From Pedosphaera sp. (lineage in GTDB: Bacteria; Verrucomicrobiota; Verrucomicrobiia; Limisphaerales; SIBH01): DNA of 64,000 nt. Positions 57,417 to 63,296 of the stretch are shown here, piece by piece. A program made the position numbers and the translations under genes. Location of the stretch: assembly GCA_031414955.1 (NCBI GenBank), contig JANOQV010000012.1:31100-95099 (forward strand), given 5' to 3'. Every line of letters starts with the position of its first letter. Positions within the stretch are counted from its first letter, which is position 1. The notes under the pieces were generated by a model. That model ran no database searches, had not been told where the DNA came from, and worked only from the letters and a program-made list of their open reading frames with translations.

Positions 57417-59792
57417 TTGCTCTGGGGTTTTTGTTTCTGTCCTGCTGTGAAGTGGAAGGCGTCGCCACTTGTTCTCATCCTGATATGCGCTGGCGTGATC
57501 GCCGGTTTGAGTTTGCTTGAATGGTTAGGTGAGACTCAGCAGCGCCTCACTTTTTTCAAGCGGCTTGAATGGATCACCTATGATTGGCGGGTCCGTGAAG
57601 CGGCCCGGCACGCCTCGCCCGTCGCCACCAATCTTGGTTTTGTAACTTTGGATGAGGGCAGCATTGACGCTGTCTTGAACGGCTCGTTGCCTTATCGATT
57701 TGGGTTGCTCTGGCCCCGGCAGGTTTACGGTCGGCTTGTGAGTGAACTTTCCGCCCAAGGCGCGAATGTCGTGGGCCTGGATGCGTTGTTTTCCGAATTG
57801 CGACCGGATCACCAGGCGGTGTCCACCGATGGCGGCTCGATTTCTTCCGACGCCTTCTTCGCCCATGCCATGCGCCGCAGTGGACGGGTGTTACTTGCGA
57901 CGGAGGATGGTCTTTTCCCACCGGAATTGTTTGCGACCAATGCGCTGGGCGTGACGCATCTCGCCGCGCAACCGGAATCGGATGGCATTCTCCGGCGTGC
58001 TCAGGCTTTCATCGAGGTGCGCGAATGGCACCCCGCCATCAAGCAGGCAGCGCGGGAATTCGGCTGGGACTTGAATCGGTTCACCTCGAATTCGCGCCAA
58101 CTTATTTTTCCCCGGCAGGATGGCGGGGGCACAAACATTCTGGCCCTCGACGCCGCAGGCCGGTTCAACGTCGGCCTGCTGGAGCGCGCGCTATCCAGCG
58201 ACAAGATGAGCCCGCTCGTCTGGCGTTTTGCCGTGCCGTTCAAGGATCACCGTTTGTGGCACCTCGGCCTCGAAATAGCGGCGCGGGAATTGAAATTCGA
58301 CCTGAAGAATGCACTCATCGATTTGGAGCGGGGGCAAATCATTCTCTCGAATACCCAAGGTGTGCGGCGTGTGCTGCCCGTGGATCGCGCGGGCCGGTTT
58401 TACATCCACTGGAGCGTCGGGATGGCGGACCCACGGTTGACGACCAGGCCCATCGAGCACCTGCTTCACCAATACGAAGCTCGGCGGGCCGGGCGCATGG
58501 ACGAAGTGACCAACGAGTGGGCTGGTAAACTGGTGGTGGTTGGCTCCACGGCCTCCGGGAACAACCTGAGTGATCGGGGCGCGACGCCCTTGGAGCAGCA
58601 AACTTATCTCGTGAGCGGATATTGGAACGTCGCTAATTCGTTGCTCGTAAACCGGTTCGTGCATCCCCTGGGCCTGCCCGCCCGCCTGCTCATCATCGTA
58701 TTCTTCGCCGTGCTCTCCGCTTTCCTTACTTTGAATGCGCGCCTGCTGGTCGCGATCGCTTCCATTGTGGCGTTGGCCCTGGCTTACGCCGGCTTCGCCT
58801 ATGTTTTGTTTATCAAGACAGGCCACTGGCTTCCGATGGTGATGCCGGTGGCTGGTTCGTTGCTGGTGACCCATGTAAGCCTCATCACCTATCTGGTGCG
58901 CGTCGAACGGCGGCTGCGCAGGCACACCAAGGAGATCTTCAGCCGGGTGGTTTCCCCAGATATTGTGCATGAACTGCTGGATCGGGAAAAACTGCAACTG
59001 GGCGGCGCACGGCGGCGCATCACGATATTTTTCGCCGACATTCGAGGCTTCACCGCCGTGACCGAGCGCAGCCAGCAGCGAGCGGAAGAACTGGTGGCCC
59101 GGAGGTGCCTTTCAGGAGCCGAAGCGGAACGGCAATTCGATATCGAGGCCGAGACGGTGCTAAACACGGTCAACCCCTACTTGAGTGCCGTGGGTGATGT
59201 GATTTTGAAGCACGGCGGCTCGCTCGACAAATACATCGGCGATTGTGTGATGGCCTTTTGGGGCGCGCCGGCGGCAAATCCGCGCCATGCCGGTGCCTGC
59301 GTCCGCGCGGCGGTCGAGGTGCAGCGCGTCGTGCTGGAATTGAACGAGCAACGCCAGGCTGAGAATGTTCGCCGGACGGCGGAGCACCTCCATCGCGCGA
59401 CCCCCGGCCAGGATGCCTTGCCGATGCTCGAAATCCTGACGCTGGGCTCCGGCGTCAACACCGGCGTGGTGACCGTTGGCATGGTCGGTTCCGAGGCCCA
59501 TTTGATGAACTACACCGTGTTCGGCCGCGAGGTAAACCTGGCCAGCCGGCTCGAAGGTGCTTCGGGCCACGCCCGCATTTTGATCAGCGCAGAAACACAT
59601 GGTGATCTCCTGCGCGATGATCCGGAACTGGCCGCGCTTTGCCGGGAGCATCCGCCGCTCACGCTCAAAGGTTTCCGCGACCCGGTGAAAGCTTATGAGG
59701 TGATGTGGCGTCCGGCGGATGTCTCCGGGGACGAAGCCGGCCAAACCATGACCACCATCCGCTCCAAGACCCAGCGCGAGACCCCCAACTGA
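57417..59792 (+). CDS. CHASE2 sensor-domain adenylate/guanylate cyclase
   Basis: TTG start (a GTG at 57447 is an alternative). TM segment, then CHASE2 region ('GFVTLDE', 'VGLDALF', 'KLVVVGSTASG') and TM helices. The class III cyclase core has 'ITIFFADIRGFTAVTE', 'GGSLDKYIGDCVMAFWGAP' and 'YTVFGREVNLASRLE'. Confidence 0.85.
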   Translation: MLWGFCFCPAVKWKASPLVLILICAGVIAGLSLLEWLGETQQRLTFFKRLEWITYDWRVREAARHASPVATNLGFVTLDEGSIDAVLNGSLPYRFGLLWPRQVYGRLVSELSAQGANVVGLDALFSELRPDHQAVSTDGGSISSDAFFAHAMRRSGRVLLATEDGLFPPELFATNALGVTHLAAQPESDGILRRAQAFIEVREWHPAIKQAAREFGWDLNRFTSNSRQLIFPRQDGGGTNILALDAAGRFNVGLLERALSSDKMSPLVWRFAVPFKDHRLWHLGLEIAARELKFDLKNALIDLERGQIILSNTQGVRRVLPVDRAGRFYIHWSVGMADPRLTTRPIEHLLHQYEARRAGRMDEVTNEWAGKLVVVGSTASGNNLSDRGATPLEQQTYLVSGYWNVANSLLVNRFVHPLGLPARLLIIVFFAVLSAFLTLNARLLVAIASIVALALAYAGFAYVLFIKTGHWLPMVMPVAGSLLVTHVSLITYLVRVERRLRRHTKEIFSRVVSPDIVHELLDREKLQLGGARRRITIFFADIRGFTAVTERSQQRAEELVARRCLSGAEAERQFDIEAETVLNTVNPYLSAVGDVILKHGGSLDKYIGDCVMAFWGAPAANPRHAGACVRAAVEVQRVVLELNEQRQAENVRRTAEHLHRATPGQDALPMLEILTLGSGVNTGVVTVGMVGSEAHLMNYTVFGREVNLASRLEGASGHARILISAETHGDLLRDDPELAALCREHPPLTLKGFRDPVKAYEVMWRPADVSGDEAGQTMTTIRSKTQRETPN

Positions 59793-59843
59793 TCGAAGGG
59801 CGTGCGACTTGACCCTGTTCTTGGTACCGCCCAACCGGTGCAT

Positions 59844-59945
59844 GGTAGGGCGGCGCTGTCCCCAGCGCGCCGGGGTGAGGCGTGGAAAGTGCGGGAGTTC
59901 TCCTCCATTCGTGGCCCGGCGCGCTGGGGACAGGCGCGCCCTACC
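59844..59945. repeat. ~102-nt inverted-repeat element (family 'GGTAGGGCG.CGCTGTCCCCAGCGCGCC')
   Basis: GGTAGGGCGGCGCTGTCCCCAGCGCGCC (59844-59871) and GGCGCGCTGGGGACAGGCGCGCCCTACC (59918-59945) are inverted with 2 mismatches. It sits in the convergent intergenic region, ending 4 nt before the tail-collar-like gene stop. Confidence 0.85.
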
Positions 59946-59948
59946 CCC

Positions 59949-60410
59949 TCACTTCACCCGCAGCACCCACACCACTTCGTAATAAGTGGGCAGGCTCGAC
60001 GCGGGATCGCTGGTGTAATTGCCCGGCGGGAAGACGGTGACGTCCGCGCCCGCCACCACCGTGCCGCCGTTGATGTTCAAGGGCAGTCCATGCGAATGAA
60101 TCTCGTTGCCACCCGTGCCGCCGCTGGCATTCGCCCCGCGCAGGAAGACCGGCACCCCGCCTTGCGCTCCGTTCAGGTCCGGTGCGTTCAATCCGTTCAG
60201 CGGCGAGTCGGGATCACTGATGGCCTGCCCATTGCACTCGACCCAGGTGCCGGGCAGCGCGGGCACATTGGGCAGGCTTTTCAAATAACCGCTCACGCCC
60301 CCGACCGGATACACCGCGTCGATGAGCGCCTTGAGCGCGTTGAGTTGCGCGCGCATCTCGGCCGAGGCGAGCGGCGATTGGTTGGAAGGTTTGTTCGGAT
60401 CAAAGGGCAT
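59949..60410 (-). CDS. Phage tail-collar-like / tail-fibre-like small protein
   Basis: 153 aa. 'PGTWVECNGQAISDPDSPLNGLNAPDLNG......FLRG...SGGTGG...H.H' loosely resembles the tail-collar (MdpB-type) pattern W..CdGq....L.G...PDLrg. The N-terminal 'LASAEMRAQLNALKALIDAV' is like tail-fibre N-termini. Motif-level call only. Confidence 0.45.
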   Translation of the reverse strand: MPFDPNKPSNQSPLASAEMRAQLNALKALIDAVYPVGGVSGYLKSLPNVPALPGTWVECNGQAISDPDSPLNGLNAPDLNGAQGGVPVFLRGANASGGTGGNEIHSHGLPLNINGGTVVAGADVTVFPPGNYTSDPASSLPTYYEVVWVLRVK

Positions 60411-60418
60411 GGGCGAAG

Positions 60419-60449
<31 letters not shown>

Positions 60450-60616
60450 CGGGGAAAGCGGCGGTGAGGACCCTGTTCGTTGCCACGGCTCGGCGTTCCG
60501 TGGCGGGTGGCGGGAGCGGGCTTCTCACCCCGCTCTGAAACCAAGGAAACACCGGGCCAAAAACCCAAGTGAACCGGCTGGAAACCGCGCCGAAGTGCTC
60601 AAGAAGCCGACCTCGT

Positions 60617-60805
60617 TGCTCGGATATCCGACCTCCGGGCCTGGAATTCGAACCGGATCGGCCTCGGATTCCGACCTCAAAGCTCGGATTTCGGTGCTTC
60701 TGGGCGCGGTTTTCGACCGAAGAGGTCGGGTTTTTTACCTCGGAGTCCGGGTTTTTGACCGATTTGGCCGAGTTTTCAGGCACTGGGGCCGGGTTCTTTA
60801 CTGAT
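60617..60805. repeat. Degenerate ~21-bp periodic repeat array (about 9 units; core C(G/C)GG(A/G)TTTT(T)(C/G)(G)ACC)
   Basis: Cores start at about 60621, 60641, 60665, 60685, 60707, 60727, 60748, 60768 and 60790, spaced 20-24 nt with a mean near 21. Examples: GCGCGGTTTTCGACC, GTCGGGTTTTTTACC, TCCGGGTTTTTGACC. Confidence 0.75.
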
Positions 60806-60834
60806 AACGCCTTCATTGACAGCGATTAGCGTGT

Positions 60835-61422
60835 TTAAGGCGTCGGCGGCGTCGGCGTGGGGCCACCGCCGCCCCCGCGCGGGAAGAACCGCTTGAGATT
60901 GTCGAGGATGGTATTCGCGCCGGGCACGTTGCGCTTCGCGGCCTGCTTCACGTTGCTGTAGAAACTCAGGTAGGCCATGTAAGTGTCCACCCCCGCCGCC
61001 GTCTGCGTGTCATCCACGCCTTCGCAGAGCGGGCCGAGCTGCTGGAAGATCTCGCGCAAGGCCGAGCGCAGGGCGCGATCCTTGTTCACTTCGGCCAGGT
61101 CCACGAAGCCCGGCACCAGTTCGGGATGCGCGGCCATTTCCAGGGCGAAGGCCTCATCCATGCCGCTGCGGATGGTGCTCATCTTGGGCAGCGAACTTTT
61201 CTCCTCCGTGGTGAGGTTGAGCAGAAAGGGCAGTAGCGCGGTGATTTCATCCAGCTTGGTCAGGATGGTGTTTTTATTGGCCGAGGTCAGCTCGGCCGAG
61301 ATGCGATTATCCATGGTTTGTGTATGAGTTGAGGTTTGCGGTTGATGGCCATCCCAAGTGAGTTCGGGCGAATCCCACGACCAGGCGGGGTTCGGCGCGT
61401 CCCAAGTGAGCGGCGTTGACAT
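60835..61422 (-). CDS. Conserved-looking hypothetical protein (no assignable function)
   Basis: Coding-like composition. 'LTTEEKSSLPKMSTIRSGMDEAF..EMAAHPELVPGFVDLAEVNKD..L...L..I...L......VDDTQTAAGVDTYMAYLSFYSNVKQAAKRNVPGANTILDNLKRFF'. The start is ambiguous (ATG at 61422 or ATG at 61314). Confidence 0.5.
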   Translation of the reverse strand: MSTPLTWDAPNPAWSWDSPELTWDGHQPQTSTHTQTMDNRISAELTSANKNTILTKLDEITALLPFLLNLTTEEKSSLPKMSTIRSGMDEAFALEMAAHPELVPGFVDLAEVNKDRALRSALREIFQQLGPLCEGVDDTQTAAGVDTYMAYLSFYSNVKQAAKRNVPGANTILDNLKRFFPRGGGGGPTPTPPTP

Positions 61423-61639
61423 GCCCGTGGATATACGCCGGAGACGCGGCGGGCATAAGAGGAACAGTTGTTCCCCCCGGAGAACCGCCTCGCATTGCGA
61501 ATGTGGTGGAACCGGCCGCGCTGCGACCAGGAGCGCCGCGTAACAGCGGCGCAACAAACTCGCGAGAGTCTCGCCCGGTCGCACGCCCCACCCGGACCGC
61601 CCGCTGATGCGCGGGCGAGTTGTCGCAGCGCGACGACTG

Positions 61640-61954
61640 CTACCTCGCCACCCGCGCGCGGCGCTCGGCCTCGCGCACGAGCTGCCACGGAAATAATTCC
61701 AGCGCGTGCCCCAGTCGCGCCAGCGTGTCCAGCCCCGGCACGCGCTTGGCCCGCTCCACCAGCGACACGGCCTGATGCGACAAGCGCGAGCGCCGCGCCA
61801 GTTCCTTGAGCGACAGACCGAGCTTGACCCGCCGCTCGCGCAGCAACTCCGGCAGGGCCAGACAGACTGGTTCCAACAACGCGCGCGGCCCGGCCTGAGG
61901 TGCGCGCCGGGGGAGCGGTGGGGAGGAACTCTTTCGGGATGATTTCTTTTTCAT
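61640..61954 (-). CDS. XRE-family helix-turn-helix transcriptional regulator
   Basis: 'LRERRVKLGLSLKELARRSRLSHQAVSLVERAKRVPGLDTLARLGHALEL' is a classic Cro/C1 HTH. The start is chosen at MKKKSS (61954). Confidence 0.7.
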   Translation of the reverse strand: MKKKSSRKSSSPPLPRRAPQAGPRALLEPVCLALPELLRERRVKLGLSLKELARRSRLSHQAVSLVERAKRVPGLDTLARLGHALELFPWQLVREAERRARVAR

Positions 61955-62477
61955 GCCCGCGAGCCTCGCCCAAGGGATGGGACAAATACGGTCCCACCGG
62001 GGAAATAGTTTCGGAGCCAGCCAGGTGGGCGGCGACGAAATCCGGACCGGTTTCCAGGCAGGAGAAATCCATGCACCACAAACATATCCCGCCCGCCGAG
62101 GGTTCAATCTTCGGTGTAAAATTGGGAAACGAAGTCGGGTGCGGACCTGGCGGAGTGCCGCCATCGCCCCCGTTTGGGCGCTGGTTTGGGCTGGGAATGG
62201 CCGCAAGAATCGGGGCCTTCTGGCCAAGCCCGGTCAAGCGCGGGCCACCGGCTCAGGGCAATAATCGAGCATGAAGACCAGGGACCAAATGCACCCAAGC
62301 CCGCCGAGAAAGATGATCGGCCAGCACGAACCGGCGTGCCATAGCGAGTTGAAGAAACTAGGAACCGACCGCTCACGCTAATGGGTGCCCCCGTTATGAC
62401 CCCGTTACGACGACGCGGGCGACACCGACCTGCTGCGGGATGGACAAACCCAGGGACTTCAGGTAGGAAAATGAACG

Positions 62478-63296
62478 TTGAAAGCGCTGACCATACTCTT
62501 CGTTTCAATTGTTTCCATCCTGGCCCAAAGCCCGCCCCCGGCGCACCGTCTGCTTGGCACCAACATTGTAGATTTCACTTGGGTGTTGCGGGAACTGGCT
62601 AATCCCAATTCGGCGGTTGACTGGCACCGCAAATACATTGCGGCTGGTAAAGTGGAAAAAGTTTCCGCGGGCGGACTCATCGCGCTGGCCCAGACGCGAA
62701 AAGTTTACGAGTACAACACCGACTCTGTGAGCGGGCAACTGACGCGCCAGTACGGGGGCGGGTCCGATATGCTCGGCATGATGGCCGCGGCCAGGCTCGG
62801 GCAGAACGGTCCCATTAGCGCGGGCCATTACTTCTCGCTCAGCCCCAATCTGCGCCAGTATTTCAACGAAGTGAACCTGAAGACGGTGGTGACGGTGCGT
62901 GGCTATGAGCAGCCAACCTTCGTTGGTCAGAGTCTGGAGTTGGTCGCATGGCCGGTCGGCGTGAATACATTTGACTATGGCACGCCGGTGGCTGGCAACC
63001 TGGGTGACAAGGCCAGATTCGTCCTCAACGTGGGACCCAACGGAGTGACCACGTCACGCGCGGCGTCCACCGCAGATTTGAAACAGAGCGAGGCTGTGGC
63101 CTTCGAGCGCCAGCGTATCGCAGCCACCAACGGATCCGGCTCGGCGCAGTACGAGGTCGGCAAGCGATACCTGACCGCCGAGGAATTCGAACTGGCCCGC
63201 CACTGGCTGATGGCCGCGAAGACCAATGGATATGCGCAAGCCGCCGATAGGCTGCTCGAGAAGATCAAGCCTTCCAGTGCTCTCCCCGGCAAATGA
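62478..63296 (+). CDS. Secreted hypothetical protein with a C-terminal Sel1-like repeat
   Basis: TTG start about 9 nt after an AGGAAA. Signal peptide MKALTILFVSIVSILAQS. The C-terminal 'GSGSAQYEVGKRYLTAEEFELARHWLMAAKTNGYAQAADRL' is Sel1/TPR-like. Confidence 0.55.
   Translation: MKALTILFVSIVSILAQSPPPAHRLLGTNIVDFTWVLRELANPNSAVDWHRKYIAAGKVEKVSAGGLIALAQTRKVYEYNTDSVSGQLTRQYGGGSDMLGMMAAARLGQNGPISAGHYFSLSPNLRQYFNEVNLKTVVTVRGYEQPTFVGQSLELVAWPVGVNTFDYGTPVAGNLGDKARFVLNVGPNGVTTSRAASTADLKQSEAVAFERQRIAATNGSGSAQYEVGKRYLTAEEFELARHWLMAAKTNGYAQAADRLLEKIKPSSALPGK

Follow-up and report, generated by a model that had tools for sequence, protein, structure and literature searches.

The window analysed here, a 64,000-nt stretch of Pedosphaera sp. 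DNA, contains a gene cassette in which hyp, a gene for a hypothetical protein, lies upstream of a tail-collar-like gene. The two genes are both on the minus strand and flank a gap at 60411-60834 that holds an array of degenerate units repeated every 21 nt (Table 1). The predicted hyp protein starts MSTPLTWDAPNPAWSWDSPELTWDG, carries three copies of an (L/T)WD motif at its N-terminus (61342-61425) and ends in a Pro/Thr-rich tail. It is modelled by AlphaFold as an all-alpha protein with a pLDDT of 80.6. No PDB fold match, nucleic-acid-binding folds included, was found for the model, no match to Pfam or PHROG families was found for the protein, and the family is confined to Verrucomicrobia. The tail-collar-like gene has ~10 paralogues in the genome. 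The gene that the first-pass annotation, made from the letters of the window, had assigned to an XRE-family regulator is confirmed by Pfam in its HTH type.

Table 1. Features of the cassette and its array, in window coordinates
Feature	Position (strand)	Description	Basis or remark
Tail-collar-like gene	59949..60410 (-)	153 aa	PHROG tail collar fiber, E=0.008, weak
(AACCCTC)x4 leader tract	60419..60449 (-)	8 nt before ATG of tail-collar-like gene	
21-nt array	60545..60796 (-)	~12 degenerate units, steps 21-22 nt	Autocorrelation, unit fit
Array unit, minus (gene) strand		~AAAWCSGASC-NNNNN-GGTCGG	
Weak terminator-like hairpin and T-run	60552..60568 (-)	Promoter-distal end of array	
Short hairpin-like element	60800..60824 (-)	Directly 3' of hyp stop codon	
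hyp	60835..61425 (-)	196 aa from conserved ATG; acidic (pI 4.9), all-alpha	
XRE-family HTH regulator	61640..61954 (-)	Upstream of hyp; candidate binder	Pfam HTH_3, E=1.2e-9
96-nt element	62027..62122 (-)	85% identical to G000:C58:643-738	

The 96-nt element exists in two genome copies only, each of which is found upstream of the regulator gene of one of two paralogous cassettes, although the regulators themselves differ, being XRE-type in the window and AraC-like (by eye) on contig C58. The element is possibly a promoter or leader of the cassette. A scan for sigma-70 promoters over 59900-62300 gave no match, and no convincing sigma-54 promoter was seen by eye. The tract that precedes the tail-collar-like gene, (GAGGGTT)n on the opposite strand, is the only part of the gap that recurs elsewhere in the genome. 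It was rejected as a part of the array, being a leader motif that occurs at 43 sites, housekeeping genes included. At these sites (AACYYTC)n is present in 2-4 copies, in many cases 5-50 nt upstream of start codons, and examples are C181:1962 before tsf, C32:6065 before glpK and C134:4531 before ahcY (genes identified by eye). Such tracts resemble a motif of general use in the 5' leaders or translation initiation of this organism rather than a slipped-strand switch specific to the tail-collar-like gene.

Periodicity and anatomy of the array

In autocorrelation, the gap between hyp and the tail-collar-like gene peaks at lag 21 (z=6.9) and lag 42 (z=6.6), and its best lag was matched by 0 of 300 dinucleotide-preserving shuffles, so that the phasing of ~21 bp proposed in the first-pass annotation survives comparison with shuffled sequence. 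The six repeat cores that it quoted are all present on the plus strand (60618-60633, 60662-60676, 60704-60718, 60726-60740, 60746-60760 and 60788-60802). Its limits for the array, about nine repeats at 60617-60805, had to be revised, as the periodic signal extends over ~60550-60800, i.e., further toward the tail-collar-like gene, and comprises ~12 units. The seven best-fitting units occupy 60607-60754 with steps of 21, 21, 21, 22, 21 and 21 nt, and Tandem Repeats Finder reports a period of 21 at 60708-60776 only (3.3 copies, 68% match). The signal at lags 21 and 42 is also found in all nine related gaps. At the site equivalent to the terminator-like hairpin, orthologues keep a GCCGTTT(T)C motif, and the stem that follows the hyp stop codon has other sequences in orthologues that by eye are still complementary (GCTGA..TCAGC, GTGCT..AGCAC and TCATTGA..TCAATGA).

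The anatomy of the unit was derived from 118 units of 12 orthologous arrays. Their conserved columns read A..TCSGACC....AGGTCSG with a variable centre of 4-5 nt. Each unit thus consists of two inverted half-sites of 6-7 bp around the variable centre, followed by an A-rich linker of 3-4 nt. The half-site columns are conserved at 70-90% (C4 in 99, A7 in 96, C9 in 107, G15 in 103 and T17 in 89 of the 118 units), and columns 10-13 are mixed. Successive units are 21 nt apart in ~80% of the steps and 22 nt apart in ~17%, with steps of 20 nt being rare. Because TCSGA pentamers occur 40, 34 and 28 times at the three 7-nt registers, the 21-nt unit can also be described as three heptads; lags 7, 14 and 28 are significant in the arrays of loci L019, L023 and L024. 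In the unit column counts, TCGGA and its reverse complement TCCGA are about equally frequent, as expected for a putative symmetric site in duplex DNA, and conserved half-sites with a variable centre are the sequence layout of a putative dimer operator.

Coding, RNA and terminator readings

As an alternative to DNA sites, the first-pass annotation had considered that the gap may be translated from the minus strand into a heptad-repeat protein. The open frame that it described at 60400-60816 is present (138 aa) and covers the gap, a period of 21 nt equals seven codons, open frames also span the gaps of L015, L016 and L017, and one database gene call (P0026, 294 aa) runs into the array. GC by codon position, however, is 0.60/0.55/0.65 in the window frame vs ~0.6/0.48/0.80 in real genes, and in the homologous arrays of 12 loci most or all frames are closed by stops and the GC3 signature of coding DNA is absent. 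Stops close every forward frame in L021, L023 and L024 and all six frames in the arrays L041, L047 and C127. The peptides derived from the long open frame through homologous gaps are unrelated among the four loci first compared, nearly every difference between L022 and L023 alters an amino acid (by eye), and the steps of 20 and 22 nt among the 118 units would break any frame, on which ground a coding reading of the array was rejected. The heptad-repeat protein thus fails on stops, frame-breaking steps, codon-position GC and divergent peptides, and it is extremely unlikely that the array is coding DNA, be it as the frame 60400-60816 or as an extension of hyp. The gene call P0026 (L026, 1000-1440) corresponds to hyp continued into the array and the spacer after a 1-nt frame shift near its end, which would be either an annotation artefact or a natural frameshift.

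The array could also act as RNA, in which case it would form short stem-loops with A-rich linkers in the 3' UTR of hyp or in the intercistronic RNA between hyp and the tail-collar-like gene and would set the stability or processing of the mRNA, balance the expression of the two genes or shield the transcript from Rho. Its place is suited to such a role: arrays begin 30-60 nt 3' of the hyp stop codon, in L021 only ~35 nt lie between the end of the array and the next ATG, so that the array is very probably transcribed, and in L030 and L032 the array trails hyp without a co-directional gene downstream. In most arrays the A-rich linker lies on the strand that is sense for the flanking genes, the small hairpin 3' of the stop codon seems to covary (by eye), and the arrays are strongly self-complementary and outfold their shuffles with z scores of -3 to -8.5. 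Folding is, however, alike on both strands (mean z of -4.76 and -4.47), and pairing within the units does not behave as a selected trait. Watson-Crick pairing among the 118 units, compared with shuffled partners, has a summed z of 1.3 (within units) and -0.8 (between units). At the variable S columns pairing is below chance (0.27 vs 0.36), and A:C mismatches exceed G:T mismatches on the gene strand in both pairing registers (65:41 and 58:33; a palindrome-based count gives 46 A:C and 40 G:T). Neither compensatory covariation nor an excess of G:U was found among the 118 units in either register, and hairpin pairing is therefore not the selected property. A search of region 59000-62500 against Rfam 15 at E<=1 found no relevant match to a known RNA family, and a sharp 21-nt period common to arrays of unrelated sequence fits no RNA mechanism. 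We regard a function of the array at the RNA level as rather unlikely. The units fit best with the recognition of double-stranded DNA by a putative symmetric protein.

A further reading, on the opposite strand, is a stack of terminators, in which the plus-strand units would act as GC-rich hairpins with T-runs that block antisense or convergent transcription. Three plus-strand terminator-like sites do lie within the array, wobble-type mismatches favour the plus strand, and the arrays of L030 and L032 face a convergent gene. The 2.4-kb region, however, contains five terminator-like sites where 2.6 +/- 1.6 are expected, many other arrays have no T-run beside the stem, and a single terminator would suffice and would leave the 21-nt ruler unexplained, all of which makes a terminator stack very improbable.

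Homologous arrays and a genome-wide class of 21-nt arrays

The hyp gene is present in 3 of 41 relatives, and its best-matching loci are in Prosthecobacter/Verrucomicrobiaceae MAGs and in lake or groundwater metagenome contigs. The unit consensus is common to the window and the Prosthecobacter-type loci, where hyp is 68-78% identical, and the spacer after the array appears unrelated between them (by eye). A perfect 17-bp palindrome typical of the Prosthecobacter-type loci is absent from 301 genomes of the window's own order, and these loci are therefore placed outside that order. This distribution suggests a patchy cassette that has passed from one order to another. Nearly every locus fetched has a gap of 300-400 nt with a 21-nt array 3' of the hyp stop codon, the exceptions being L025, L031 and L033, where unrelated sequence comes after hyp. 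The arrays of L030 and L032 are followed by neither a tail-collar nor a collagen-like gene but by a convergent gene, from which it follows that the array goes with hyp, the sole gene that always adjoins this array family. Prosthecobacter includes cultured species, and the cassette is carried by Prosthecobacter sp. assembly GCA_034366625.1 (L056).

Individual loci have further features. At positions 1-3233 of L056 the cassette of hyp, array and collagen-like gene is divergent from a gene for a 3098-aa protein with RHS/YD and TSP3 repeats, and in L019, L021 and L023 the divergent neighbour is a large gene with repeats of DSDGD type (by eye). Locus L021 (CAMCWM010000040.1) is labelled Akkermansia muciniphila and is close to the cassettes of Prosthecobacter/Verrucomicrobiaceae lake metagenomes, so that this MAG may be taxonomically mislabelled. 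The hyp paralogue at G000:C58:1368-2033 is split into two frames or has an in-frame TAG. It is possibly a pseudogene, with its array and tail-collar paralogue intact.

More distant homologues of hyp also have a 21-nt array, and the units there are different, i.e., in the C58 paralogue (42% identical), G011:C432 (65%) and G011:C148 (29%); those of the C58 cassette are non-palindromic direct 21-nt units. The period was then scanned over the whole genome in windows of 147 nt, with codon periodicity controlled for, by a statistic in which the highest value at lags p±3 and p±6 is subtracted from the mean of lags p and 2p. At a threshold of 0.17, 27 arrays were found at p=21 vs 0-4 at each other period from 12 to 36, and 17 of the 27 lie outside ORFs of at least 250 aa. 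At a threshold of 0.14 the scan gives 32 arrays for period 21 and 28 for period 42; at 0.12 it gives 48 and 42, respectively. Every array has its own unit, which is often a small palindrome, and the units were not found as dispersed repeats elsewhere in the genome; the pattern CCGASC-N5-GSTCGG has six matches genome-wide, two of them inside the window array. A REP-like dispersed repeat was rejected on the ground that the array unit is unique in the genome. The arrays resemble REP, BIME and REPIN elements in being intergenic and in having alternating palindromic arms, but REP elements are many dispersed copies of one sequence, whereas each of the present arrays is unique in the genome and has a fixed period of 21 nt. 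Nothing relevant was found in the literature on 21-nt or 21-bp repeat arrays in Verrucomicrobia.

The neighbours of the arrays are uncharacterised genes, which encode N-terminal W-D repeat proteins (e.g., MRTAYWDSGLRFDDPNLRWGDP and MTWDTGTWDSGFWD), helical proteins with Pro/Thr- or Ser-rich tails and tail-collar paralogues. The homologues of one of them, the MRTAYWDSG gene, in G015, G017, G011 and G005 are preceded by 9-16 units in a near-exact 21-nt register. These arrays lie in other genera and families, have unrelated unit sequences and range in GC from 41 to 70% in the three arrays computed. An N-terminal triple (L/T/R)W(D/G/N) motif is shared by otherwise unrelated array-linked proteins (e.g., LTWD..WSWD..LTWDG and MTWDTGTWDSGFWD) and was found in hyp, C280, C184, C119, C213, C210 and L037. 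The motif may serve these proteins as a shared signal for targeting or assembly. The array and downstream W-D gene at C213:30028-30560 and C119:22324-22860 (G000) are two copies, ~96% identical, in which array and gene are separated by ~180 nt of unrelated hairpin-rich spacer, and this locus is considered a mosaic because near-identical parts flank a completely unrelated spacer. At G000:C280:12300-12365 (L035), a perfect (GCGCTGTT)x8 octamer repeat adjoins another 21-nt array.

These comparisons bear on two readings in which no dedicated protein recognizes the array. In the first, the array would be a neutral or selfish minisatellite, produced by drifting tandem duplication of a small palindrome and devoid of function. 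Consistent with drift, close relatives differ in unit number (the L032 array exceeds that of L030 by one unit), the units are degenerate (~68% match) and the cassette is as patchy as described above (3 of 41 relatives). Slippage, however, would not favour period 21 alone (27 arrays vs 0-4 elsewhere), the place of the array beside homologous genes is stable across genera, families and orders, and the half-site columns are 70-90% conserved, and a minisatellite is accordingly improbable. In the second, the array would be purely architectural. Its in-phase bends would give the DNA intrinsic curvature or anisotropic flexibility, by which promoters, loops or the binding of nucleoid proteins would be organised without a dedicated sequence-specific binder. 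Such a role would account for a period that is kept despite free sequence, and many arrays have an A- or T-tract once per unit, including the AAAA(A)C tracts of the window. Curvature was predicted with a wedge model, the parameters of which are provisional, as the ratio of end-to-end to contour length relative to genome percentiles and shuffles. With these parameters the window array is predicted to be bent (ratio of 0.80 vs 0.94 in shuffles, with 0 of 100 shuffles as bent), and 15 of 30 arrays fall under the genome's 5th percentile. The other half of the arrays are predicted to be straight, the provisional parameters count against this evidence, and the conservation of the hyp-family unit consensus across orders is more than curvature alone would need. 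Curvature is a plausible contributor to the function of the arrays but no general explanation, and we assign a low probability to a purely architectural role.

Candidate regulators and a putative DNA platform

In the window and in L024 and L027, an HTH_3/XRE gene is part of the cassette, and such genes are also found beside the arrays C213, C249, C292, L037 and L046. The order in C213, L037 and L046 is XRE, array and W-D gene, and C292 has the order of the window, i.e., XRE, helical protein and array. A local HMM identifies 17 XRE-like ORFs in the genome, and 4 of the 17 are within 1.5 kb of an array vs 0.23 expected (~17-fold), a test that is partly circular because three of these four ORFs were seeds. 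No XRE gene is present in the DNA examined of the orthologous-array loci L019, L021, L023, L030 and L056, and since many orthologous arrays have no XRE gene nearby, the XRE protein is a candidate binder only. At C184 the regulator gene is divergent and has an NtrC-type look (by eye). A search for extra units near the XRE or hyp promoters, with at most one mismatch allowed, gave no match except one of chance level at 61652, and an autoregulatory copy of the unit was rejected. The hyp protein itself is disfavoured as binder, being acidic, all-alpha and without a fold or family match.

Based on these results, we propose, at somewhat less than an even chance, that the array is a phased platform of double-stranded DNA for a cooperative regulator that would control the transcription of the cassette. 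As duplex DNA, the array would present ~12 degenerate, roughly dyad-symmetric putative sites 21 bp apart. As 21 bp are two helical turns, all of these sites would be on one face of the helix, and each 21-bp unit may be read as three 7-bp sub-sites with a TCSGA core. We infer that a sequence-specific protein would most likely bind cooperatively along the array, the first candidate being the XRE-type HTH protein of the cassette and the second another small protein. A protein so bound may act as a roadblock, as a repressor or through looping and thereby control the transcription that proceeds from hyp to the tail-collar-like gene. The array would be one of a class of 21-bp-phased arrays that, in this genome and some relatives, flank accessory cassettes of uncharacterised genes, the predicted products of which are N-terminal W-D-motif, tail-fibre-like or helical proteins with low-complexity tails. 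The first-pass annotation had likewise supposed phased non-coding sites for a DNA-binding protein. That part is strengthened by the half-sites, the lack of hairpin covariation and the XRE enrichment, and its analogies to iterons and partition sites are not sustained, as discussed below.

Several observations count against a regulator platform. For five orthologous arrays the DNA examined contains no XRE gene, the XRE and hyp promoters have no extra copy of the unit, and hyp, the sole constant gene, is acidic and has no nucleic-acid-binding fold match. The array sits between co-directional genes or faces a convergent gene (L030 and L032), is probably transcribed and is not in a classic divergent promoter region, twelve sites far exceed usual operators, and the XRE enrichment partly rests on seeds picked for their nearness to arrays.

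Among known systems, the OR and OL operators of lambda, 434 and P22, which are bound by CI/Cro-type proteins of the XRE family, consist of dyad-symmetric sites of 14-18 bp placed about two helical turns apart. Dimers of CI/Cro-type proteins bind cooperatively on one face of the DNA, at three sites and between divergent promoters. The present array is similar to these operators in its conserved outer half-sites, variable centre, spacing of about two turns and the small HTH_3 gene in the cassette, but it differs in having 12 putative sites instead of 3, in lying between co-directional genes and in that many orthologous arrays have no XRE gene. A second comparison is with the omega protein (ParB) of plasmid pSM19035, a ribbon-helix-helix (RHH) protein. 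According to the account in PMC9499535, omega arrays are composed of contiguous 7-bp sub-sites in direct and inverted orientation, of which at least four contiguous repeats are needed (PMC9499535; Weihofen et al., 2006, as cited there). In the same account, the omega protein wraps DNA and the heptad repeats double as transcription operators (PMC9499535). The occurrence of TCSGA at all three 7-nt registers is a similarity to these heptad arrays. RHH, ParA and delta genes were, however, not found, the third heptad is in many cases an A-rich linker, and there are dozens of arrays, which lie on the chromosome and differ from one another in core sequence.

The iterons of plasmids R6K and pPS10 are 22 bp long, and the parC repeats of pSK41 are 20 bp long. 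Like these iterons and the ParR-parC system, the present arrays have tandem units of 20-22 bp on one helical face, lie beside a gene of the same module and differ in sequence between homologous modules. Unlike them, they have no initiator, segregation NTPase, DnaA boxes or AT-rich region, their units are quasi-palindromic and there are many arrays per chromosome. The first-pass annotation had likened the array to iterons and to centromere-like partition sites. True plasmid- or phage-type replication iterons or a partition centromere would be consistent with iteron-like tandem units of ~21 bp on one helix face and with 7-bp sub-sites in both orientations, which resemble the heptad parS of pSM19035 (PMC9499535). 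In searches with Pfam and PHROGs, however, no Rep, ParA, ParM or RHH gene was found, and there is no AT-rich region, GC being at least 0.58 in every 200-nt segment from 60300 to 61000. The ~27 arrays are on chromosomal contigs, and their flanking genes are ordinary chromosomal ones. The iteron analogy does not hold, given that neither a gene for a Rep initiator nor an AT-rich unwinding element was found and that this genome has ~27 arrays. The partition-site analogy likewise falls, as neither a ParA/ParM NTPase gene nor a gene for a small centromere-binding protein was found among the ORFs and Pfam matches of 59900-62500. A role in replication or partition is therefore barely credible. The array has the geometry of CI/Cro operators, omega heptads and iterons/ParR-parC alike, whereas the linked genes and copy number of these systems fail to match.

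Beyond the platform for a cooperative regulator, we consider it possible, if on balance doubtful, that the 21-bp arrays are an unrecognised class of cis-element of Verrucomicrobiota whose defining feature is a ruler of two turns (21 bp, in many cases with a super-period of 42 bp) rather than a sequence. In such a class each array would co-evolve with its own cassette, and a one-faced nucleoprotein filament or loop would switch accessory cassettes of surface, tail-fibre-like or W-D-motif genes, some of which would move between orders. The class may represent a chromosomal version of the architecture of plasmid segrosomes or iterons that has been put to new use in gene control.

If this interpretation is true, a single genome would contain long arrays by the dozen, each of 9-16 sites, with nothing in common but two-turn spacing, and relatives in other genera, in other families and in one or more other orders would keep this arrangement. 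The arrays would be a natural case in which helical phasing, and not site sequence, is the conserved feature, and models of cooperative one-face binding or of DNA architecture would be directly testable with them. They would also provide a handle on the regulation of many uncharacterised genes of Verrucomicrobia, i.e., those encoding W-D-motif proteins, tail-collar/collagen-like fibres and helical proteins with low-complexity tails.
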